NCBI GenBank assembly: GCA_963835625.1
Contig: CAWIGO010000007.1
Location: forward strand, 75,415-139,414
Length of the DNA stretch: 64,000 nucleotides
Origin: an uncultured Verrucomicrobiae bacterium
GTDB lineage: Bacteria > Verrucomicrobiota > Verrucomicrobiia > Limisphaerales > UBA11358
Direction of reading: 5' to 3'
Below the pieces are notes generated by a model. The model was not told the origin of the DNA. It saw only the letters and a list, made by a program, of their open reading frames with translations, and searched no databases. Both the position numbers and the translations under genes were made by a program. Numbering within the stretch: position 1 is the stretch's first letter; each line of letters opens with the position of its first letter. Positions 1,585-61,685 of this stretch are shown in pieces.

Positions 1585-5253
<3,669 letters not shown>

Positions 5254-5257
5254 AAAA

Positions 5258-8018
5258 TTAAAGAACGTATTCAGCGGTGGAACCGTGATTGTCAGCGTCC
5301 TGTGCGACTTTGAACCCGGCTTCTTTGCTCACGTGAATCATCGCGTGGTTGTCAGGGGGAATGTGCGCGAAAATGCGGTCGAGCTTTTCATCGCGCCCAA
5401 TTTGCACGAGACGTTTGAGCAACTCGGTGCCGAAACCCTGTTTCTGCCAACGGTCACTGATTAAAAGCGTGAATTCCGCCTCGTTCAGACCGCGCGCCTT
5501 GCTCAACCGACCCACGCCAAGAATTTCCAATTGGCCGGTTTGCGGATCCTTGCGTTCGACAACGAGCGCGATTTCGCGGTCGTAATCGTTGAAGCAAATG
5601 CGCGTCAACCGTTCGTGCGCGATGCGCTGGTCCAGTTTGAGCGGGTTGGAAAACCGGTTGATAAACACTTTCTTCGGAAAGTGTTTCGTGAAACTTCACC
5701 AGCAACGGCTCGTCTTCGGGACGGATCGGACGGACCATGACCGCCGTGCCGTTTTTCAATTTCCACGGCGCCATATATTGCGTCGGATACGGACGGATGG
5801 CGAGCCGGGGCAGTTTATCTTCCGTCGTCTTCAAGTCGTGCAAGATGACACGGGCGTCCAGCGCGACGAGGTCCTCGGCGGAGGCGAACATCGGATTGAT
5901 GTCAATTTCCTTGATCCAACGCTGTTCGGCAACGAGCTGGCTGAAGCCGACCATCAGTTTTTCCAGCGCAATGAGATCTACTGACTTGCGGCCGCGAACG
6001 CCTTTGAGCGCTTGATAAATTTTGGTCGTCTCCATCATGCGGCGGGCGAGCGTGGTGTTCAACGGAGGCAGGGCGAGGGCTTTGTCCTTGAACACTTCGA
6101 CGAGCTGGCCGCCCATGCCGAAGAGAAGCACCGGCCCGAACTGCGGGTCAATGCTGCTGCCGAGGATGATTTCGTAGCCTTCGCTCAGCTTGATCATCTT
6201 TTGCACGGTCACGCCCTGGAAGTGCTGCGCGCCGGCCTTCTCGGTGCAGGCGGTCTTGATTGCGTTGAACGCCTTGCAGACCTCGGCCTCGTCCTTCAAG
6301 TTCAACTGCACGCCGCCCACGTCGGTCTTGTGGGTGATGGTTTCGGAATAAAGCTTCAGCACCGTCGGGAAACCGATTTCCCTGGCCAGTTTGGCCGCCT
6401 GGGCTTCCGTCTTGGCAACCTTCGTGATCACCGTCGGAATATTGTAGCAGGCGAGCAATTCCTTGGATTCGGCCTCGGTGAAGATTGTGCGGCCAGCTTT
6501 CTTCACCGATTCAATCAAGGTTGCGGCCTTGGCACGGCCCGATTCGAGATCGGCGGGATGGGCGGATGGCACCGGGGTTTCGTAGAGCGCCCGGAGGTTG
6601 TCCGCGTAGCGCCACATGGAAGTGAACACTCGTGCGGCGGTGTCGGGATACAGGAAGGTCGGAATACCCGCGGCGTTGAGGCTCTGTACACCTTCGGCAA
6701 CGTCCTTGCCGCCCATCCAACTGGCGAGCACGGGCTTGCCTTCGATGTGGCCGAACGCCTTCAATTTTTCCGCAGTGCCGGTGCAGTCAGTCATCGCTTG
6801 CGGCGTCAGAATCACAAGCAAGCCGTCGCTGTTCGGGTCTCGGCCCGCAATTTCCAGCGTCTTGGCGTAAACCTCCGCGCTGGCGTCGCCGAGGACGTCA
6901 ATGGGATTGTTGTGCGACCAGGCAAAAGGAAGAATTTTATTCAGTTCTTCGATGGTGCTTTTGGATACTTCCGCCAGCGCGCCGCCAGTGGTCAGGAGCG
7001 CGTCGGTGGCGAGCACACCCGGCCCGCCGGCGTTCGTAATCATGGTCATGCGGTTGCCCCGGGGCCGGGGTTGTCGGTCCAACACTTCCGACAGGTAGAA
7101 CAGGTCGGAGATGTCGTTCACGCGCAGCACGCCGCAACGCTTGAAAGCGGCTTCAAGAACGTCGTCGCTCCCGGTCAGCGAACCGGTGTGAGAAGCGGCC
7201 GCCTTGGCGGCGCCTGCGGTGCGGCCGGGTTTGATGACGATGATCGGCTTGGTCAGCGCGACTTCGCGGGCGGCGGACAGGAACGCGCGGGCGTCGCCGA
7301 TGGTTTCCATGTAAATGACGATGCTCTTGGTGTTTGGATCGTCGCCAAGATAATAAATCAGGTCGCCCCAGCCGACATCCAGCATGGAGCCGATGGAGAT
7401 GAACGCGCTGAAGCCGACGTTTTCCTTCAGACTCCAGTCGAGAACCGCGGTGCACAGCGCGCCGCTTTGGCTGAGGAACCCGACATTGCCGGGCTTGGCA
7501 ATGGTGGCGGCGAACGTGGCGTTCAACCCGATCCCCGGCATCATGACACCGAGGCAGTTCGGGCCGACGATGCGCATCCCGCCCCGTCGCGCCTCGGCGA
7601 GAATCTGTTGTTCAAGCTTGGCGCCTTCCGCACCGGTTTCCTTGAAGCCGGCGGAAATAATGACAGCGCCCGGCACACCCGCTTCGACGCACTCATGGAT
7701 GAGGTTCGGCGCAGTTTTCGCCGGCGTGCAGATAACCGCCAGGTCCACCTTTCCCGGTACGGAGGCGATATTGGGATACGCCTTTACACCCAACACGGAG
7801 GAACGCTTCGGGTTGACCGGATAAACGACCCCGGCAAACCCGCCGCGGCCGAGGTTTTGAAACACCGTGCGTCCGACGGTGCCCGGGTTTTCCGTCGCGC
7901 CGATGACCGCGACGACTTTGGGTGCAAAAATGGAATCCAGCGGATGTTTGCGGGCCCGCAAAATGTCATGAGTGGGTTCGGAATGTTGTAAGGTCGGGCT
8001 TGTTGTTGCGGTCTGCAT
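5258..8018 (-). pseudogene. Pat-like protein acetyltransferase (NDP-forming acyl-CoA-synthetase-like domains plus a C-terminal GNAT domain) with the reading frame broken near 5660-5670
   Basis: ORF 5454-8018 carries the CoA-binding, ligase and ATP-grasp parts ([24 protein letters not shown]). It stays meaningful up to ...[12 protein letters not shown] and then becomes Arg/Pro-rich nonsense. The GNAT domain ([35 protein letters not shown]...WQKQGFGTELL) continues in the +1 frame as ORF 5258-5668. The break could be a real pseudogene, a split gene or an assembly indel. Confidence 0.7.
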
Positions 8019-8429
8019 GAAATATCAAAGTCTCAAAATTGGTTTAAATCGTAATCTCAAATTTATCAGCGGCAACCAAACTCATCCAGCTTTAATAAAC
8101 TGCTGGTTCCAGACCGTTTCGGCTTCGCTGACTTTGGCAAATCCTTTCCCTTTTTTGTGTTGATGGCATCCATCCCGGCGCAACAAGAGAATTTTTCAGA
8201 CTGCCAGTAAAATAGGCATTTTTGCAATTTCCGGTTTTCGCCAGTTGATACGCTTGCCGGATCATGTTCCCAACATGAAAGCTGTCACACACGATTACAT
8301 ACTCGTGGGGACCTGCATATGGACGCGGAATTCGCCGGCGTTGGTGGCTGAAAAATCACGTTCCGATTTCAATCTCAATCAAATCATTGGCCGTCCGCTT
8401 CTTGCGGATGCCCGCCATTGCCACCGCGT

Positions 8430-9485
8430 TCAATAGGCGGGCAATTGCGCGCGGTAATCGGTGGGGGATTGGCCTAGAAGCTTTTTGAACACGCGGTTGA
8501 AATGCGTGAGCGATTGGAATCCAACTTCAAATGCGATTTCACTGACGCGCAGGTTGGGATTGAGCAGCAGATTTTTCGCTTTCTCGATGCGCACGCGCGA
8601 AAGATAGTCGGTGAAATTGACCCCGGTGACTTTTTTGAACATTTTGCAAAAGTAGAAGGCGCTCATGTTGACCGCTTTGGCGACCTGGCCGAGCGAAAGT
8701 TTTTCAGACTGATGTTCGCAAATGTAATCCTTGGCGCGCATGATGACCGGCGATTCGGCGTTTTCCTGCTGGATGATGACCTGATTGCTCACCATTGCCA
8801 GGTGCTGGGCAAAAATGGCGAGCAGTTTCACCACCGACTCCTGTTGTTTGGGCGACAGCACCTTGCCGGAAAAGTAGGCCTTCTTCAAAACATCCCGTTC
8901 CACGTCCGAACCCCATTCGGCGACTTGTTTGGCGACCTGCTCAAACTGCGCTCTGCCCGGTTTTTTGCGGAAGACCTGTCCGGTTTGGAGAAATCCAATC
9001 AACCGGTCGCTCAATCGCACCGGCACGGCCGTTTCGCAGAGCCCGGCGAAACAAATGATGGTCCACGGTTCGGTCGGGGCGTTTTCACAAAGCCGCTCGC
9101 GCACCTGCAAACACGCCGCGCAGGCGCGGCTTTTCCGCGCCATCAAGGCGCAAAACGGATTTTCATTCCGCCGGCCATGGTACGGCAGTTGCCACGTTTC
9201 AACCGGCTGCAACGACACCGGCAGTCCAGTCATGTCGCCAAAGGCGCGCTCGTATTCCTGGTAGATTTTTGAACCGAGGAGCGCCTCGATCAACGCGTGG
9301 TTGCCGTTGCCGTTACCACTGCCATTCGGAGCGACAACGGGGGTTTTGTCTTTGGAAACAAATCTTTTTACTGGAACAAAGCCTGTGGTTTCCGTCCGAA
9401 ATCGTGGTGCGGCGGAAAAACCCCGGCGCAAAGCAGGTGAAGCAGAATGACCGCCCGGGCCTTGCTTAGCAAATATTGTCTGCAC
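8430..9485 (-). CDS. AraC-family transcriptional regulator with an N-terminal PocR-like sensory domain
   Basis: The C-terminus is an AraC/XylS double HTH (LSLGQVAKAVNMSAFYFCKMFKKVTGVNFTDYLSRVRIEKAKNLL...FQSLTHFNRVFKKLLGQSPTDYR). It is preceded by a Cys-containing PocR-like region (NPFCALMARKSRACAACLQV). Confidence 0.85.
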   Translation of the reverse strand: MQTIFAKQGPGGHSASPALRRGFSAAPRFRTETTGFVPVKRFVSKDKTPVVAPNGSGNGNGNHALIEALLGSKIYQEYERAFGDMTGLPVSLQPVETWQLPYHGRRNENPFCALMARKSRACAACLQVRERLCENAPTEPWTIICFAGLCETAVPVRLSDRLIGFLQTGQVFRKKPGRAQFEQVAKQVAEWGSDVERDVLKKAYFSGKVLSPKQQESVVKLLAIFAQHLAMVSNQVIIQQENAESPVIMRAKDYICEHQSEKLSLGQVAKAVNMSAFYFCKMFKKVTGVNFTDYLSRVRIEKAKNLLLNPNLRVSEIAFEVGFQSLTHFNRVFKKLLGQSPTDYRAQLPAY

Positions 9486-9672: not shown

Positions 9673-10839
9673 GTGAAAACATTGCATAAATATCTGACGT
9701 ATCAGGTGATCGCTTCATTGTTGTTGACCGTGGCGGTATTCACCTTTGTGTTGTTGCTCGGCAACGTGCTCAAGGAAATCCTCACGTTGATTATCAACGG
9801 TCAAGTGCGCCCTGGCACAATGTTCGAAGCAATCGGCTTGTTGATTCCATTCGTCTGGGTATTTGCGCTGCCGATGGGTTTGCTCACCGCGACACTGCTG
9901 GTGTTCGGTCGTTTCAGCGCTGATCAAGAACTTACCGCTGTGCGCGCCAGTGGCATCAGTTTGTTGTCACTGATCACGCCCATTTTGCTCCTGAGTTTGC
10001 TTTGCTGCTGCATGAGCGCCTGGATCAACATGGACATTGGCCCCCGTTGTCGCGTCGCTTACAAAAATTTTCTCTTCCGCGCGCGTTCCGAACTGGTGAA
10101 CGTCCGATTGCCTGAAGGCCGGTTCATCCGCGATTTTCCGGGTTATATTTTTTACGTGGAAAAAAATCGCGGCGGCAATTTGCAGGGCGTGATGATCTTC
10201 AAACTCGAGAATGGAACAAACGTGGAAACAACCTTGCGCGCGCCGCGCGGCCAGTTCGAGACGGACGCGAAAAACAAACAACTCGTTTTGCATTTGTTCG
10301 ACGCCCGCAGTGTGACGTTAAGCGGGTCACATGTGGGAATTGCCTCATTCCCGATGTTGACGTTGAACTTCGACCTGAACGCGGCGACGAACCAAATTTC
10401 CAAACCCAAAATCAGCGACATGACGTTCTGGCAATTGCAGGATGAACTGCGCGACCTGGAACAACGATTCCACCTGCCGCCTGTCGCTTCTGCATCGCCG
10501 CCGGAATTACAAGCGCAACTTCGCGAGGTCGCGAAGCAACGAACCGATTTGACCGAGCCGATTCACGTGGAAATGCATCGGCAAATCGCGTTTTCCTTCG
10601 CATGTTTCGGGTTTACGCTCATTGGCATTCCGCTGGGCATTCGCGTGCACCGGCGCGAGACGAACGTTGGCGTTGCCATGGCGCTCGTGCTGGTGCTGAT
10701 TTACTACAGCTTCGTCATCCTTGGCGAATCATTATCCGCACGTCCGGAATTTGCGCCGCATTTGATTTTCTGGGTGCCGAATTTCATTTTTCAGGCCGTC
10801 GGCGCGGTGCTGCTCTGGCGCGCCAATCGCGGGATTTGA
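9673..10839 (+). CDS. LptF/LptG (YjgP/YjgQ) family LPS export permease
   Basis: The ORF track starts at 9634. An in-frame GTG at 9673 gives the family-typical N-terminus [12 protein letters not shown].... The layout is three N-terminal TM segments, a periplasmic beta-jellyroll-like middle, and C-terminal TM segments. The start codon is uncertain. Confidence 0.8.
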
Positions 10840-34835: not shown

Positions 34836-34848
34836 ATTGCAAAGTGTT

Positions 34849-34909
34849 CCGGCAACGCGCTCAATTGGTCGAGGATAAATTCTTTGAAGGAGGCGTCAGC
34901 CATGTTTGG
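34849..34909 (+). repeat. leader repeat L1 (CCGGCAACGCGC...AAATTCTTTGAAGGAG...CATG), recurring at 38390-38448; the 12-mer alone also occurs at 36977
   Basis: L1 (34849-34909) and L3 (38390-38448) align by eye over about 60 nt with scattered substitutions. CCGGCAACGCGC occurs at 34849, 36977 and 38390. The last two sit about 10-20 nt after a GH28 stop, and the first sits upstream of the first copy. Confidence 0.8.
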
Positions 34910-34992: not shown

Positions 34993-35020
34993 TTGAGTTT
35001 GAATCAATTTGTGTTATGCT
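34993..35020 (+). promoter_or_regulatory. candidate promoter of GH28 copy 1
   Basis: TTGAGT (34993-34998), a 16-nt spacer, then TATGCT (35015-35020). The same -35 hexamer, spacing and a TATATT -10 are conserved upstream of copy 2. Confidence 0.4.
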
Positions 35021-35037
35021 GCCTTATTATCACACCC

Positions 35038-36960
35038 ATGAAACTAACGGCTGTCTTTATTTCAGCCTGGCTGGTTTTGGCCGGTTGGGTTCACGCCGCC
35101 AATCCGGCGATGCCAACCATTTCGACCAATATTTATAATGTCACTAATTATGGCGCCATCGGCGACGGGGTGAAGGATAACACGACCAACATTCAAAACA
35201 CCATCAACGCGGCGAACGCGGCGGGCGGCGGCATCGTCGAGATTCCAGCGGGCACGTTTTTGAGCGGGCCGATCACGCTGACCAACAACATCAATCTGCA
35301 GGTGGACACCAACGCGATGCTCCAGATGCTGCCTTTGGGAACTTATCCCGGCGGCACAACGAACGCGCAAACTTTCATCTATTGCAATAATGTTCATGAC
35401 GTGGAAATCAGCGGTTGGGGCAAGATTGACGGTCAGGGCGCCGCTTGGTGGACGTATTTCAACACTAACAGCACAATCGTTCGGCCCATGATGCTCAACT
35501 TGTATTCCGCCAACCGGCTTTTTATTCATGACATCACCTTCCAGAACCCGCCGTATCATCATTGCGGCCTGCGGAACAACGGCGGCAACATCACCATCAG
35601 CAATTTGACCGAGAACACTGTTTCACCTTCGCCCAACACCGACGGGCTTAATTTCGTCGGGACCAATTGCATCATTGAGAATTGCCACATCAGCGTTGGC
35701 GACGACAACATCGCCATGGGCTCAACCGGCCCGATCAACGACCTGCTCATCACCAATTGCACTTTTGGCACCGGGCACGGCGTTTCCATCGGCAGCGGTA
35801 TTTCCGTGGGCATATCGAACCTGACCGTCATCAACTGCACGTTCAACGGATCGGATTATGGCATCCGCATGAAGTCCGACACCAACATCGGCGGCATGGT
35901 GCAGAACCTGAATTATCTCAACCTCGGCATGACCAATGTCAAAGATGGGGCGATAACCATTTACAGCTACTACAACGAAACCGGAACGCCCACCGGCATC
36001 ACTCCGACGACCGCCGCCGGGGAAGTCATTAGCCCCGTCAACAGCGCGACCCCCGTTTGGCGCAACATCACCTTCAGCAACCTGACTGCGACCGTGAGCA
36101 GCAGCGGAGTTGCGGGCATCATTTGGGGACGAACGGAATTGCCCGCCACCAACATCATCATGAGCCATGTCAACATCACCGCCTCGAAAACCTTCGACAT
36201 TTACAACGCGCAAGGCATCCAGTTTCTGGATTCGAAAATCACCACCGGCAGTGGCAAGACCTTCACCATTTGGAACGCCAACGTCACCGTCAGCAACACC
36301 GTGCCCGCGACCAACCTCGTCACCTTCGACGGGCTGGGCGGCAACACCAACGACTCGCTGGCGCTTTACAACGCCAGCGCTTCCATGACCAGCACCGACG
36401 CGTTTGGCGCCAACCCCATCACGTTGAGCGGGAGCGTGCTGACCAACACCGGCAACCTGACCTTCTCCAGCAAAGAAGCGATAAACTTTGCACTGGGGAC
36501 GAACAACTCCGCCATTGTGGTTGCCGGCAATCTGAACCTGAGGGGCACGCTCAACATCACGAATGCCGCCGGCTTCACCGCCACCAATTACATTCTGTTC
36601 ACCTACACTGGCAGTTTGACCAACACCCCGGTTCTCGGCGCAAAACCAATCATCAACAGTTACCTTTACCGCCTCGATACCAACACCGCCGGGCAGGTGA
36701 AGCTCGTGGTCACCGCGCCGTCGCCACCAAACTTTGGGAACATCCAGGTTGCGAACGGCGGCGGAAGTTTTGTGATGAGCGGCACCGGTGGCGTGACCAA
36801 CGGCACTTACTATGTGCTGACCTCAACCAATGTTGCGTTGCCGTTGAGTCAATGGACGCCTGTTGCTACCAATCCATTTGACGCCAGCGGCAACTTCACC
36901 TTCACCAACACGCCCGCTGCAAACGCCCCGCAGATGTTTTACCTATTGCAACTGCCGTGA
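35038..36960 (+). CDS. secreted glycoside hydrolase family 28 (polygalacturonase-like) with a C-terminal beta-strand-repeat extension
   Basis: The ATG at 35038 gives the signal peptide MKLTAVFISAWLVLAGWVHA. GH28 catalytic blocks are present: SPNTDG, GDDNIAMG, GTGHGVSIGS, GIRMKS. About 200 extra C-terminal residues have a repetitive G/T/N-rich beta-strand pattern and end in ...MFYLLQLP. Confidence 0.85.
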   Translation: MKLTAVFISAWLVLAGWVHAANPAMPTISTNIYNVTNYGAIGDGVKDNTTNIQNTINAANAAGGGIVEIPAGTFLSGPITLTNNINLQVDTNAMLQMLPLGTYPGGTTNAQTFIYCNNVHDVEISGWGKIDGQGAAWWTYFNTNSTIVRPMMLNLYSANRLFIHDITFQNPPYHHCGLRNNGGNITISNLTENTVSPSPNTDGLNFVGTNCIIENCHISVGDDNIAMGSTGPINDLLITNCTFGTGHGVSIGSGISVGISNLTVINCTFNGSDYGIRMKSDTNIGGMVQNLNYLNLGMTNVKDGAITIYSYYNETGTPTGITPTTAAGEVISPVNSATPVWRNITFSNLTATVSSSGVAGIIWGRTELPATNIIMSHVNITASKTFDIYNAQGIQFLDSKITTGSGKTFTIWNANVTVSNTVPATNLVTFDGLGGNTNDSLALYNASASMTSTDAFGANPITLSGSVLTNTGNLTFSSKEAINFALGTNNSAIVVAGNLNLRGTLNITNAAGFTATNYILFTYTGSLTNTPVLGAKPIINSYLYRLDTNTAGQVKLVVTAPSPPNFGNIQVANGGGSFVMSGTGGVTNGTYYVLTSTNVALPLSQWTPVATNPFDASGNFTFTNTPAANAPQMFYLLQLP

Positions 36961-37036
36961 ACCTTGGCGCGCAACTCCGGCAACGCGCTCGTTGGAACAG
37001 AATCCGCACGCGCTGAACATCGCCCGCAGTCTTTGG

Positions 37037-37064
37037 TTGAGTTGGAATCCACTTTTGCTATATT
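37037..37064 (+). promoter_or_regulatory. candidate promoter of GH28 copy 2
   Basis: TTGAGT (37037-37042), a 16-nt spacer, then TATATT (37059-37064), inside the conserved block GGTTGAGTT.GAATC. Confidence 0.4.
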
Positions 37065-37083
37065 GTCGGCTCCGATTACGCCT

Positions 37084-38379
37084 ATGAAACAAAAGATTGC
37101 CTTGATTTCCGCCGGGCTGGCTTTGGCCGGTTGGGTTCACGCCGCCAGTCCGGCGATGCCGACCATTCCGACCAATATTTATAATGTCACAAATTATGGC
37201 GCCATCGGCGACGGGGCGAAGGATAACACGACCAACATTCAAAGCGCCATCAACGCAGCGAACGCGGCGGGCGGAGGCATCGTCGAGATTCCGGCGGGCA
37301 CGTTCCTGAGCGGTCCCATCACCCTGCTCAGCAGCATCAATCTGCAGGTGGACACCAACGCGATGCTTCAGATGCTGCCTTACGGAACTTATCCCGGTGG
37401 CGACACCAACGCGCAAACTTTCATCAGCTGCAATGGGGTTCATGACTTGGAAATCAGCGGCTGGGGCAGGATTGACGGTCAAGGTGCCGCCTGGTGGAAG
37501 GAGTTTCGCACCAACCACGTAATCGTCCGCCCCATGATGCTCAACTTGTATTCCGCCAACCGGCTTTTCATCCACGACATCACTTTCCAGAACCCGCCCG
37601 GCCACCATTGCGGGCTGCGCAAGAACGGCGGCAACATCACCATCAGCAATCTGACCGTGAACACTGTTTCACCTTCGCCCAACACCGACGGGCTGAATTT
37701 CGTCGGCACCAATAGCATCATTGAGAATTGTCACATCAGCGTTGGCGACGACAACATCGCCATGGGCGCCACCGGCCCCATCAACGATCTGCTCATCACC
37801 AATTGCGTCTTCGGGTTCGGCCATGGCGTGTCCATCGGCAGCGGCGTGCGCGATGGTGTGTCGAACCTCGTGGTTGCCAACTGCTCGTTCAATGGCGGCA
37901 CGTTCGGCATACGTATGAAGGCCGACACCAACAGTGGCGGCCTGGCTCGGAACCTTTTCTACCACGACATCACCATGACCAACGTGCAGATGCCCATTCT
38001 CATTTACAGCTATTACAAGACCGCAGGCGGTGCCAGCAAGATCAGCCATTTCACCCCCACCCAGGCCGCCGCTTTCGCCGCTGAGCCTGTCACCGACACC
38101 ACACCGGTCTGGCGCGACATCACCTTCAGCAACATCACCGCCGCCGCCACCGTCGCCGGCGGTGCCATCTGGGGACGCCCCGAAATGCTCGTGTCCAACG
38201 TCAGCTTTGTTCATGTGGACATCACCGCACCCGGCCCCTTCAACATCTATAACGCGCGTGGCATCCGGTTCCAGGACTGCCATATCCGGCTCAAGGACGG
38301 CGATACGTTCACGCTGTACAACGCCGACGTCGTTGTCACCAACACCGTGAATCGTCCGTCTGCCGCCGGGCAAAAATAG
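37084..38379 (+). CDS. secreted glycoside hydrolase family 28, tandem paralog lacking the C-terminal extension
   Basis: The ATG at 37084 gives the signal peptide MKQKIALISAGLALAGWVHA. It has the same GH28 blocks (SPNTDG, GDDNIAMG, GFGHGVSIGS, GIRMKA). It is visibly near-identical to the upstream copy over roughly the first 250 residues and much more diverged after that. Confidence 0.85.
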   Translation: MKQKIALISAGLALAGWVHAASPAMPTIPTNIYNVTNYGAIGDGAKDNTTNIQSAINAANAAGGGIVEIPAGTFLSGPITLLSSINLQVDTNAMLQMLPYGTYPGGDTNAQTFISCNGVHDLEISGWGRIDGQGAAWWKEFRTNHVIVRPMMLNLYSANRLFIHDITFQNPPGHHCGLRKNGGNITISNLTVNTVSPSPNTDGLNFVGTNSIIENCHISVGDDNIAMGATGPINDLLITNCVFGFGHGVSIGSGVRDGVSNLVVANCSFNGGTFGIRMKADTNSGGLARNLFYHDITMTNVQMPILIYSYYKTAGGASKISHFTPTQAAAFAAEPVTDTTPVWRDITFSNITAAATVAGGAIWGRPEMLVSNVSFVHVDITAPGPFNIYNARGIRFQDCHIRLKDGDTFTLYNADVVVTNTVNRPSAAGQK

Positions 38380-38389
38380 GCACGCCGTC

Positions 38390-38448
38390 CCGGCAACGCG
38401 CCCAACAGGTCAGGACAAATTCTTTGAAGGAGTCGTATGCATGCTTCG
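38390..38448 (+). repeat. leader repeat L3 (a truncated third copy of the GH28 unit junction)
   Basis: See L1. Similarity ends where the AT-rich segment begins (about 38450). Confidence 0.75.
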
Positions 38449-38467
38449 GTCAAGTTTTAGTTAAAAC

Positions 38468-39409
38468 TTATTTATTGGTGCTACTGAATTGATCAAATGC
38501 CGCACCAATCAATAATTCTTCACCGTCATCAATAACCTTTTTGTAGTCCATAATCGGCTTGTTTTCGTTGGGAATAGTTTCGCCTTCGGGAAGGTGCACA
38601 TAAGTATTAATTAATCCCACTGCAACTGAAGCCGATATCTCCAAAGAGCCGCATTTATTTTTAATTATTAAATGCCGCCGTCCATCCACTTGAATGCCCT
38701 CAAAAAAAACTTTAAAATCCCAATCAGCATTTTTTTGAAATTTAACTTCTGCGACATTTATTTCTCCTACATCGAGACTTATCATTGTTGGCAGGCCATG
38801 GTAGTCTGAAACAACTTTGTCAGCATTTAGCACTGCTGCATTTCCCAGTTTTCTAGTAAGTGATGTGATGGCATAATCATAATAAACTATGTTGTCTTGA
38901 TACCCAGATTGCAGAGCATTCAAATGTTTTTCACGTTGAAGTTTCGATTGAATTCTGGACGTTGTAGCTCTGCGTCTCAAATTGTCTGCCCAAGCGTTCA
39001 AATCTCCAACCTGCGAATCAACAACTTCAAATTGTCTATTGTTGTCGATGATCCGCTGCCTCAAATCTAAACTAATAAATGAATTTGTTGCTAATTCATT
39101 TAGAAGACTTTGATGCTGTCGCTGAAGAGTTGATTGGTTGGAGTTGACAGTTGAGAGCTGATTCGTCAGGTAATTGATTTGTCTTGTGAGCTCTTGTTTG
39201 TCTGATTTGGCCTGATTGTCTTTCTGAAGACTGTTGATTTGATTTAACACAAACAGTCCTAACGTCAGCCATAAAACACGTTTTCTCCAATTTTTGTGGG
39301 TAATAGTTCTACCATCATCGAAATGATATTTGAGCCGGTATTCCCACCAAATTAAAACGACCGCAAGAATGATCAGCGAAATACCGAGAATGTAGGAAAT
39401 CCAATTCAT
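38468..39409 (-). CDS. hypothetical membrane-anchored protein (AT-rich ORFan A)
   Basis: 313-aa ORF with N-terminal hydrophobic segments (ISYILGISLIILAVVLIWW, VLWLTLGLFVLNQI). These are followed by a Q/N/S/T-rich probable coiled coil and then a globular C-terminal part. I recognised no motif. My hand counts of 60-nt lines give about 25-43% G+C, against about 52-58% in the flanks. Confidence 0.55.
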   Translation of the reverse strand: MNWISYILGISLIILAVVLIWWEYRLKYHFDDGRTITHKNWRKRVLWLTLGLFVLNQINSLQKDNQAKSDKQELTRQINYLTNQLSTVNSNQSTLQRQHQSLLNELATNSFISLDLRQRIIDNNRQFEVVDSQVGDLNAWADNLRRRATTSRIQSKLQREKHLNALQSGYQDNIVYYDYAITSLTRKLGNAAVLNADKVVSDYHGLPTMISLDVGEINVAEVKFQKNADWDFKVFFEGIQVDGRRHLIIKNKCGSLEISASVAVGLINTYVHLPEGETIPNENKPIMDYKKVIDDGEELLIGAAFDQFSSTNK

Positions 39410-39461
39410 TTAACTTTTCTGCGCTTCCTTCGCCCAAGTGTCCTTGAGCGTGATGGTGCGG

Positions 39462-41219
<1,758 letters not shown>

Positions 41220-60809: not shown

Positions 60810-61685
60810 TCAATTGGCATATTCTCCAATATGTTGCCAAGACGGATATTTGAAAATTGGTTTTGCCCACGGGAAAACCAATTCGTTTGTGGTTGGCAAT
60901 TTATAAAAATGACATTGTCCATTAAATGCGGACATTACAAAATTCGTGTCACTAAAAAATCCATTTACCACTATTTCTTCAGGACGCCTGTAAAAAACCT
61001 GTAAGATTGGAATGTTGTTTTTTGAAACAATTTCCATTGCGTTAGAACTATAATTCCTATCCCAATCTAAAGGAATTTTGCCATCAATGTCGCTATTCAT
61101 TTGAAACACTTCCGAATTAGATTGCATCAGAAATGTTTTGGTCTGCTGTTTATAATAAAGACCAGCTCTAATATAAAGACGATGGTTTTTAAGAAATGGG
61201 TTAAAAGGTGGCCATTGCATATCATTTATGACCAAAGTTAGTGAAGGATGAATACGCCCTTGTTTCAGATCAGCTACTTGATACGTAAAATTTTGAGAGC
61301 CAAACAAGATGTGAACTTCTTTACAACCTTTTGAAAGTTCAGGAGGTTCCCAAGTTTGATTTGAGGACTGATTTTTAAAGTGTTCAAAAGTAAGCCATCC
61401 TCCAAATGAAAAAACGAGTCCAAGAAGCGCCCAAATAATTGCCAGTTTTTTTGGATATTTTTTGAACCGGCAAAACGATAACACCGCAATTGGCAATAAA
61501 GCTAAAGAGCCAAATAGGGCCCATTCCCAATGTGCTAAAATCCAAAATCCAAACCCAATAATAGTAACAATACCAGGGCCGATTTCTCCAATAGTCTTGA
61601 GAAAAGGGATTACTTTGCCAGTGGGAAGATTTTCGATGCTTCCTTTTTCAACGTCTCTCTTAAAGTTGCATTTCCCTTTTTTCAT
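60810..61685 (-). CDS. hypothetical polytopic membrane protein (AT-rich ORFan B)
   Basis: 291-aa ORF with about 3 hydrophobic segments between residues ~35 and 105, followed by a W/F/Y/N-rich soluble part. I recognised no motif. Hand counts give about 30-40% G+C. Its ATG overlaps the upstream stop as ATGA (61682-61685). Confidence 0.55.
   Translation of the reverse strand: MKKGKCNFKRDVEKGSIENLPTGKVIPFLKTIGEIGPGIVTIIGFGFWILAHWEWALFGSLALLPIAVLSFCRFKKYPKKLAIIWALLGLVFSFGGWLTFEHFKNQSSNQTWEPPELSKGCKEVHILFGSQNFTYQVADLKQGRIHPSLTLVINDMQWPPFNPFLKNHRLYIRAGLYYKQQTKTFLMQSNSEVFQMNSDIDGKIPLDWDRNYSSNAMEIVSKNNIPILQVFYRRPEEIVVNGFFSDTNFVMSAFNGQCHFYKLPTTNELVFPWAKPIFKYPSWQHIGEYAN

Follow-up and report, generated by a model that had tools for sequence, protein, structure and literature searches.

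Directly behind the essential gene glnS of an uncultured Verrucomicrobiae bacterium lies a single AT-rich gene whose start codon adjoins the ancestral glnS stop codon. The gene is contained in a 64-kb stretch of contig CAWIGO010000007.1 (64,000 nt, hereafter the window), and a preliminary description of that sequence presented it as "ORFan A", apparently a promoterless foreign cassette translationally coupled to glnS. It is a genuine, selected protein-coding gene of a rare, uncharacterised family, here called family A, and from its position and divergence in relatives it appears to have occupied the glnS stop codon from a time before the window's lineage split from its nearest family-bearing relative. 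Read as a whole, the evidence presents family A as an old accessory gene that rides on the tail of essential anchor genes and that over long times behaves as a cassette, with decayed integrative units stacked at the anchors' 3′ ends; the chance that this reading is right in full is put at about even. On present evidence no categorically new mechanism is involved. Accretion itself is already known, and what is new here is its miniaturised, integrase-less form at essential-gene ends, along with the protein family.

The label ORFan did not survive database searching. A word-indexed search of 5.8 billion proteins returned six homologues at 33–55% identity (a profile search of the same database added one further protein only), and an exhaustive HMMER search of 1.84 billion cluster representatives returned 113 family-A representatives at E ≤ 1e-3, 59 of them at E ≤ 1e-10. 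Most of the 113 are about 300 aa long with a common layout, and at identities of 20–60% they conserve in alignment the motifs LATN..(I/V)...R..I...FE......DLN.W, GD...S.Y.GLP, AEIK.Q.N..W.F and YK..ID..L..LIA. Pairwise dN/dS within the family is 0.10–0.22. All members with a readable context come from environmental Verrucomicrobiota-like genomes. The earlier statement that the protein carries no recognised motif was correct, in that Pfam, NCBIfam, PHROG and PADLOC models all remain below cut-off (the top Pfam score has an E-value of 0.018 and 15 bits against a cut-off of 25, and the other libraries score more weakly). In the same scans the segment, a single open reading frame (ORF), showed no recombinase domain, no toxin or antitoxin domain and no nuclease family match of the kind expected for a homing endonuclease; toxin–antitoxin modules occur as neighbours in relatives, outside the family-A gene itself. 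Rfam gave no match in the family-A region or in the arrays of relatives described below.

The proposed architecture of N-terminal transmembrane segments, a coiled coil and a globular C-terminus was borne out by structure prediction. AlphaFold, run on the full-length protein with the homologue alignment, gave a pLDDT of 91.9, with helices at residues 3–29, 36–108, 114–127 (short) and 137–194, seven strands within 199–285 and a helix at 286–312; a domain-only model of the C-terminal part reached a pLDDT of 91.8 and a pTM of 0.83. The predicted layout is a two-helix membrane hairpin (about residues 3–60), an antiparallel coiled-coil stalk (61–108 and 137–194) with a conserved tip (N109, R117, D136 and N138), and a beta-meander with a C-terminal helix (199–312). 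Across 49 family members the net charge is +3.35 in the loop between the hydrophobic helices vs +0.27 after the second helix, and by the positive-inside rule these charges would place the stalk and the C-terminal domain in the periplasm. No structural relatives were found. A PDB sequence-profile search with family A found no relative, and Foldseek searches with the full model gave nothing significant against PDB (best E-value 0.04, TM-score ≤ 0.17) or against BFVD. With the C-terminal domain model the best PDB match had an E-value of 0.16 and a TM-score ≤ 0.32, and Pfam and the other curated libraries searched with this domain by itself gave nothing above cut-off. A YdbS/YdbT-like PH-like domain was considered for the seven-strands-plus-helix topology and dropped, as PH matches reached TM-scores of 0.24–0.29 and there was no bPH Pfam match. 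With a confident fold that has no structural relative, family A is a candidate for a new envelope or defence component. Its architecture, patchy distribution, fast evolution and toxin–antitoxin neighbours, these alone, weakly suggest a conflict factor located in the envelope, acting for instance in phage or competitor exclusion.

The composition of the segment is as extreme as the preliminary description held, and it encodes the one 313-aa protein. The ORF has a G+C content of 38.1%, and in 300-nt windows values run from 0.36 to 0.45 within it vs 0.53–0.63 in the flanks. The G+C content at third codon positions (GC3) is 0.358, vs a mean of 0.669 (sd 0.049) over 42 other genes of the window (z = -6.3). 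Only two comparably AT-rich islands exist in the window, this gene and the segment at 60.8–61.7 kb (ORFan B, below). A recent import does not follow from these values. The gene is conserved at the same position, with similar composition, in four other lineages, which is the finding that the preliminary description had itself named as one that would refute its proposal. Across eight loci, family-gene GC3 is 0.36–0.43 vs an anchor GC3 of 0.56–0.81 (at least 0.70 in seven of the eight), and the synonymous divergence (dS) of orthologues is saturated at 1.2–2.3, with a glnS dS of 0.95 between the window and the relative L001. Since a foreign signature should have decayed across a dS above 1, the low G+C content is being held in place. 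One distant member has 50% G+C in a 62% G+C genome and another is host-like (L091, L109), which suggests that the low G+C may be an offset from the host more than the fixed composition of a donor. A conjecture for its cause is codon de-optimisation, which would keep the dose of a membrane protein low where the gene cannot set its own transcription. A phage, plasmid or viral-contig origin found no match in INPHARED, PLSDB or IMG/VR. Family A is thus a counter-example to the routine reading of G+C outliers as recent transfer, a gene with a foreign-looking signature that is old at its locus.

On the minus strand the junction reads ...GCGCAGAAAAGT TAA ATG AAT TGG, in which TAA (39410–39412) terminates the frame coding for the conserved GlnRS C-terminus and ATG (39407–39409) opens the family-A gene. 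The exact right boundary described earlier is therefore true of the ancestral GlnRS frame, whereas glnS as assembled stops in another frame at 39462–39464, 52 nt before the family-A ATG. One surplus unit of a heptamer repeat in glnS explains the shift in frame, and because of that shift the abutment holds for the ancestral frame only. The CTCAAC motif is in frame, by alignment, in the family-A-less relatives L017 and L013. The frameshift removes the last ~20 conserved GlnRS residues; it lies 60–90 nt upstream of the junction and is unrelated to it. A chimeric junction with a cassette-borne glnS end was considered for the frame break and rejected, since the empty sites of L017 and L013 have CTCAAC in frame and the break comes down to one surplus heptamer. 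Real slippage, even of a phase-variation-like kind, and an assembly error are both possible; the other long genes of the window look intact.

The absence of a promoter-sized spacer and of an integrase was confirmed, and the stop/start-coupled placement recurs in relatives. With the start codon on or over the anchor's stop codon and no room for a promoter, the gene would be expressed as the tail of the anchor's mRNA. As judged from this arrangement, family A is most likely expressed from the glnS mRNA here, and from that of the anchor elsewhere, by translational coupling or re-initiation. The idea of a promoterless cassette coupled to an essential gene thus holds as a recurrent feature across the family, but in the window as assembled the coupling is broken by the glnS frameshift.

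The locus of the window (WIN in the comparisons) was set beside loci of relatives, which carry L-numbers. Occupied glnS stop codons were found in WIN and in four other Verrucomicrobiota-like metagenomic lineages. In L001–L004 and L101 the family-A start overlaps the glnS stop by 1–4 nt, L005 has an ATGA overlap of the two, L009/L010 have a TAA/ATG junction from glnS to family A, and in L092 TAA/ATG stands behind a fragment of the glnS end. The stop–start distance is thus -4 to 0 nt at five glnS-linked loci (WIN, L001/L101, L005, L009/L010 and L092). The order pgsA-purE-glnS-familyA-GH28 is common to WIN and L101, and over its first 211 nt the family gene is ~80% identical between the two, like glnS itself, with 65% identity in the remainder. 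Present in these four other metagenomic lineages, the gene is absent behind glnS in the reference loci: among 80 of them, at least 13 with 72–87% GlnRS identity, no family member lies within 5 kb of glnS. Judged by its glnS, the host of the window belongs to the Verrucomicrobiota, and the best reference GlnRS match for WIN is a peat metagenome-assembled genome at 84–87% identity. At empty reference loci glnS is followed by DNA of ordinary G+C content that differs from lineage to lineage, and at occupied sites the downstream flank differs in every lineage compared. Occupied and empty genomes are interspersed, as the empty L011 has 87–88% GlnRS identity to WIN and L001, which share 84% with each other. 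By this distribution the family-A gene is accessory.

The family is not confined to glnS. Members follow ligA in L093, L102–L105 and L006, with spacers of 6–24 nt (L093, L102, L105 and L006); in L095 the family-A start lies 10 nt past a copy of the ftsY end, and in L096 the anchor is dxr. The distant member L091 sits upstream of nusA. In a neighbour-joining tree, members group largely by anchor gene.

What points to mobility is the duplication of anchor ends. In L009/L010, a 1.05-kb unit of the family gene, 12 nt and a ~63-nt 5′ fragment of tfoX is bracketed by the 22-nt glnS-end repeat GGGCGAA(A/G)GAAGCGCAGAAAAT (21/22 identical). Elsewhere such copies separate the family gene from further cassettes. 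In L095, ftsY is followed by two ORFs, a repeat R1, Uma2, R2, Phd-ParE, R3, 10 nt and the family gene, R1–R3 being 68–73-nt copies of the ftsY end (97%, 97% and 86% identical) that end exactly at a stop codon. In L096, dxr is followed by a 58-aa ORF with PemK, R1, HicBA, R2, ~100 nt and the family gene, and the copies measure 116–133 nt at ~91% identity to the dxr end. In L006–L008, ligA is followed by HicBA, then by a 172-nt stretch that repeats the ligA end (86% identical), the family gene and a ZBD/HhH fragment of a different, L102-like ligA, a layout that would be the expected outcome of a circle carrying a ligA 3′ part and the family gene recombining with the resident ligA. L092 has a pair of unannotated ORFs, after which come ~70 nt of the glnS end, TAAATG and the family gene. 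A zeta-toxin-like label for one of these two ORFs was not confirmed by Pfam or NCBIfam, and both stay unannotated.

In all four of these arrays (L095, L096, L006 and L092), three of which contain toxin–antitoxin pairs, the family gene lies farthest from the anchor, and the anchor-end copy beside the family gene is 86–91% identical to the resident end in the three arrays that can be compared. The arrays were found again in independent samples, and a duplicated glnS end occurred at none of the 80 family-less glnS loci. Whether one cassette is shared by different anchors was asked of the HicBA units of L006 and L096, which are only 31–34% identical and thus uninformative. Duplicated core-gene 3′ ends offer a systematic route to finding such islets. 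Several anchor-end copies are themselves ORFs (L095 4617–4706, L096 5096–5233 and 5719–5901, L006 4312–4473), with start codons overlapping, or just past, the stop of the cassette gene before them; from this spacing, a chain of translational coupling along the arrays is conceivable. Direct repeats of 65–83 nt (87–99% identical, 0.3–5.7 kb apart) were also seen near glnS in other reference loci (L049 3041–3109/8778–8846, L087 3680–3762/4801–4882 and L020 10339–10403/10678–10742), and these may be further cassette-type structures.

The mechanism that would join these observations begins with Campbell-type integration at an anchor's 3′ end, catalysed by a recombinase acting in trans or brought about by homologous recombination. 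The resulting copies of the anchor's 3′ end would flank the family gene or separate it from cassettes that arrived later. Integrative elements that had decayed to cis-mobilizable elements (CIMEs) would then stack by tandem accretion, with the family-A gene as the oldest and most distal unit of each stack. The essential-gene stop codons of Verrucomicrobiota, as docking points, would extend known accretion to an extreme, miniature form in a little-studied phylum.

Several observations weigh against this reading. The window holds no second copy of the glnS end (at ≤7 mismatches in 30 nt), so that the status of the gene as a cassette here rests on its relatives, and in this assembly the glnS frameshift, with the actual stop 52 nt upstream of the ATG, breaks the coupling. 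No integrase or autonomous parent element was found near any fetched locus, although no systematic integrase search of Verrucomicrobiota genomes was made; the only mobility genes near the loci are a RAYT gene in L101 and an insertion sequence fragment in L096. The repeats, at 68–172 nt, exceed the typical length of attachment (att) sites (8–60 bp; PMC5704250) and their left ends vary. Long repeats with variable left ends make RecA-type homologous recombination of circles of anchor end and cassette an equally good mechanism. The arrays were located only through family A, so its constant distal position may partly reflect sampling, and the clade of L100, L107 and L108 has its own conserved upstream region. 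Family A is absent from the phage, plasmid and IMG/VR collections, the dose explanation for the low G+C is a conjecture, and no structural relative in PDB or BFVD stands behind the proposed function.

The reading set out in the preliminary description, a recent foreign, promoterless orphan cassette from an AT-rich donor at the glnS stop, is very unlikely and largely refuted. It could appeal to the extreme composition (GC3 z = -6.3), to the absence of the gene from the closest reference relatives and to the lack of a curated family match, but a family of 113 representatives exists, position, composition and synteny are shared with four other lineages, orthologues have passed a dS of 1 without drift of GC3 toward the host, and the phage, plasmid and viral collections hold no match. 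An unlikely alternative is repeated re-seeding from an unsampled, AT-rich (~40% G+C) mobile reservoir in Verrucomicrobiota, for instance of small integrative elements, plasmids or phages, with anchor-specific attachment sites. The chromosomal copies would then be relatively recent and independent, and their low G+C would be no more than that of the reservoir. The steady family G+C of ~38–42% across hosts of 53–62%, the interspersion of occupied and empty genomes, the repeat flanking the L009 unit with the duplicated anchor ends elsewhere, and the anchor-specific clades, which could mirror att specificity, would all suit it. Against it, no reservoir copy was found in INPHARED, PLSDB or IMG/VR, and within the glnS clade the divergence of the family tracks that of the host (GlnRS 84% and family A 59% identity between WIN and L001, 77% and 39% between WIN and L009). 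WIN and L101 also share both flanks and have the first 211 nt of the gene as similar as glnS, and the 50% G+C member in a 62% host and the host-like member (L091, L109) suggest an offset instead of a fixed composition. Decidedly unlikely is the opposite view, that family A is the immobile, ancestral last gene of a glnS operon, mostly lost since, and that the arrays are unrelated toxin–antitoxin insertions. The synteny between WIN and L101, the purifying selection, the anchor-specific clades and the lack of a repeat flanking the gene in the window agree with it. It leaves unexplained the four anchors (glnS, ligA, ftsY and dxr) and the members with their own upstream region, the 22-nt glnS-end repeat that brackets the gene in L009/L010, the ~70 nt of glnS end that accompany the L092 gene with the rest of glnS not preceding it, the second-type ligA fragment after the L006 gene, and the lack of a duplicated glnS end in the 80 family-less loci.

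An integron-type cassette, or an integrase-less array remnant (CALIN), is an extremely improbable explanation. A single promoterless ORF of ~1 kb, toxin–antitoxin cassettes adjoining it in relatives as in chromosomal integrons, and a window junction GTTAAAT that by eye fits the core GTTRRRY speak for it. However, the 3′ end has no conserved attC-like imperfect palindrome (an 18-nt palindrome there is confined to the window), the junction motif is missing in L001, L005 and L009, the separators are the coding 3′ ends of anchors and not attC sites, and no locus has an integron integrase. That the ORF is spurious, in AT-rich non-coding DNA, could draw on the lack of a curated family match; the homologues at 20–60% identity with conserved motifs, the dN/dS of 0.1–0.2 and the confident alignment-based AlphaFold models refute it and leave it a vanishing chance. 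Beyond the favoured account of old tail-riding genes and decayed units, a bolder version is speculative and doubtful: the family-A gene, or its AT-rich DNA, might along with the final 70–170 nt of the anchor found an undescribed, integrase-free landing pad for cassette capture, with toxin–antitoxin cassettes captured proximally, all on the transcript of the essential gene, and with a protein that would be a new kind of envelope conflict factor, its dose set by codon de-optimisation. If true, such a platform would be a functional analogue of the integron built on housekeeping genes.

Among known systems, the closest to the accretion reading is the insertion of integrative elements into housekeeping-gene 3′ ends, followed by their decay to CIMEs that have lost the integrase and by tandem accretion (PMC5704250). 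Examples are the ICESt1/ICESt3-type elements at fda and the integrative and mobilizable elements at guaA, trmE, rpsI, rplL and further genes, and att sites are typically 8–60 bp (PMC5704250). The likeness lies in the use of a conserved housekeeping gene's 3′ end as the target with the gene kept intact, in direct repeats that, at loci of relatives, include the gene end, in units that lack an integrase and are stacked in tandem, and in toxin–antitoxin modules as frequent cargo. For family A the placement agrees, at the 3′ end of a conserved gene whose coding sequence is kept (up to the ancestral glnS stop in the window, and alike in L001, L005 and L009), and no integration or transfer genes occur in the window segment or in the arrays of relatives. 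The units here differ in being minimal (0.6–1 kb, with one gene or one toxin–antitoxin pair), in their 68–172-nt repeats with variable left ends, and in a distal unit that is always of one AT-rich family, with the start codon on the anchor's stop at the simplest loci. They differ as well in the Verrucomicrobiota host and in a window copy without a distal repeat, and the fetched loci yielded no parent element whose integrase would match these sites (no systematic search of Verrucomicrobiota genomes was made).

A second comparison is with the minimal mobile elements of Neisseria (Saunders and Snyder, 2002, as cited in PMC1797815). As that citing account summarises them, these are accessory cassettes of one to three genes without mobility genes of their own, at fixed sites beside conserved genes, which are present, absent or replaced by alternatives between strains and are thought to move through homologous recombination in their flanks. 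Here only one flank, the anchor, is conserved and the other side is variable, and duplicated anchor ends are not a known feature of the Neisseria elements. Natural transformation is not known for the organisms that host family A. A further parallel is offered by the orphan toxin/immunity arrays downstream of rhs and cdiA genes (PMC3967940). There, too, displaced cassettes are each preceded by a 3′ fragment of the main gene and arise by recombination with incoming DNA, newer units being proximal and older ones distal. However, in the rhs and cdiA arrays the fragment belongs to the toxin gene itself and its exchange alters the toxin tip, whereas here it is the end of an unrelated essential enzyme and seemingly serves as a recombination site only. 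The likeness to integrons consists of promoterless cassettes with one ORF of unknown function each, of arrays in which toxin–antitoxin cassettes abound and of expression from an upstream promoter. The family-A loci differ in lacking attC, attI and IntI, and their separators are the anchors' coding 3′ ends. Among the 3′ flanks of five loci the tfoX fragment is the sole common element (compared without a dedicated attC model), and the arrays are headed by glnS, ligA, ftsY or dxr, where an integron would have its integrase and attI. Phage morons and superinfection-exclusion membrane proteins resemble family A in being AT-rich relative to their surroundings, small, membrane-anchored, accessory and fast-evolving. 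Family A differs from them in having no prophage context, no match in phage collections and no promoter/terminator pair of its own.

Table 1. Positions in the window of the family-A gene, its neighbouring features and ORFan B.
Feature	Position	Strand	Description and basis
Family-A gene ("ORFan A")	38468..39409	-	313 aa, ATG start; ORF list, homologues, alignment, AlphaFold, dN/dS
TAA/ATG junction	39407..39412	-	ancestral-frame glnS stop adjoins family-A start; sequence, frame translation, equivalent junctions in L001, L005, L009 and L092
Segment coding for the conserved GlnRS C-terminus	39410..39472	-	shifted in frame relative to the remainder of assembled glnS
glnS ORF as assembled	39462..41219	-	585 aa, ends ...NSQPSTGA*; Pfam tRNA-synt_1c and C-terminal domains
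7-nt tandem repeat, 4.1 copies	39471..39500		AGTTGAG (+) / CTCAACY (coding); Tandem Repeats Finder
8+2+8 A/T palindrome	38452..38469		AAGTTTTA-GT-TAAAACTT; 2-nt overlap with the family-A stop codon
tfoX-like 5′ fragment, third copy, degenerate	38387..38442	-	same fragment after the family-A gene in L002/L101 and L009/L010
tfoX 5′ fragment, first copy	34846..34903	-	MADASFKEFILDQLSALPE...; upstream of GH28 paralogue 1
tfoX 5′ fragment, second copy, partial	36974..36998	-	between both GH28 paralogues
Terminator-like hairpin	38377..38404	-	11 bp then TTTTTG; consensus scan and fold; 64–91 nt past the family-A stop
ORFan B, AT-rich membrane-protein gene	60810..61685	-	291 aa; between a MocA-type oxidoreductase gene and lpxB

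At the left end of the gene, the palindrome and a third copy of what had been called a GH28 leader repeat are both present as the preliminary description stated, but they do not mark an insertion scar. The leader comes from a tfoX-like gene, of which it is a 5′-end fragment (MxDxSFKEFxLDQLxALPE), and the third copy (38387–38436) is 86% identical to 34846–34896. The locus L011 has an intact TfoX_N gene (10353–10748) and a second, 56-nt fragment (8508–8563). The two tandem GH28 (polygalacturonase-like) paralogues at 34993–38379 form a 2046-nt repeat unit at ~78% identity, and their order is swapped between the window and the syntenic L101. As judged from its recurrence in relatives, the tfoX fragment already stood behind the family-A gene before these lineages split, and the GH28 units appear to have been added beyond it; the prior presence of the fragment means that the left boundary is not a scar of that gene's insertion. 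The palindrome is absent from every homologous locus compared, and its region shows no folding advantage over shuffled sequence (z = 0.21). It is probably incidental, an all-A/T hairpin being ordinary in AT-rich DNA, and its role as an attC site or transposon end was rejected for want of conservation in relatives. The terminator-like hairpin overlaps the end of the tfoX fragment and is a candidate for the end of the glnS/family-A transcript. The ~57-nt tfoX 5′ fragment is a dispersed repeat, which separates the GH28 paralogues of the window and adjoins the intact TfoX_N gene in L011. This hints that gene 5′ ends, too, are perhaps recombination or accretion sites in this lineage.

The other AT-rich island of the window, ORFan B, had been said to repeat the pattern of the family-A gene, and as an observation this was borne out. 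Its G+C content is 36% and its GC3 0.30 (z = -7.5), its ATG overlaps the TGA of the upstream MocA-type oxidoreductase gene (ATGA), and lpxB lies 44 nt downstream. From a reading of the sequence, its protein would have ~3 membrane helices and a C-terminal part rich in beta structure. The search of 5.8 billion proteins returned no homologue, and searches of curated families (Pfam, NCBIfam, PHROGs and PADLOC) gave none above cut-off. Kinship with family A was rejected, both BLASTP and hhalign being negative.

Some features of relatives stand apart from the cassette question. In L101 a gene for a REP-associated tyrosine transposase (RAYT; 8018–8900, the same as L002 2000–2500) lies 230 nt past the family gene, with REP-like hairpin repeats at its flanks, and is absent from the window. 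The 93-nt repeats on either side of purE in L101 (4364–4456 and 5006–5098) were considered as a duplicated gene end and rejected, being a palindromic REPIN/MITE-like element near RAYT; this element is likewise absent from the window. In L102 a convergent PIN/Phd toxin–antitoxin pair (5985–6730) directly follows the ligA-linked family gene. The 5′ half of L102 ligA (2939–3739) is AT-rich, at 0.40–0.48 in a genome of ~57% G+C. Acido-Lenti-1 RNA scores above the Rfam gathering threshold at two places in L102, 578–622 (-) and 725–770 (+), far from the family gene.

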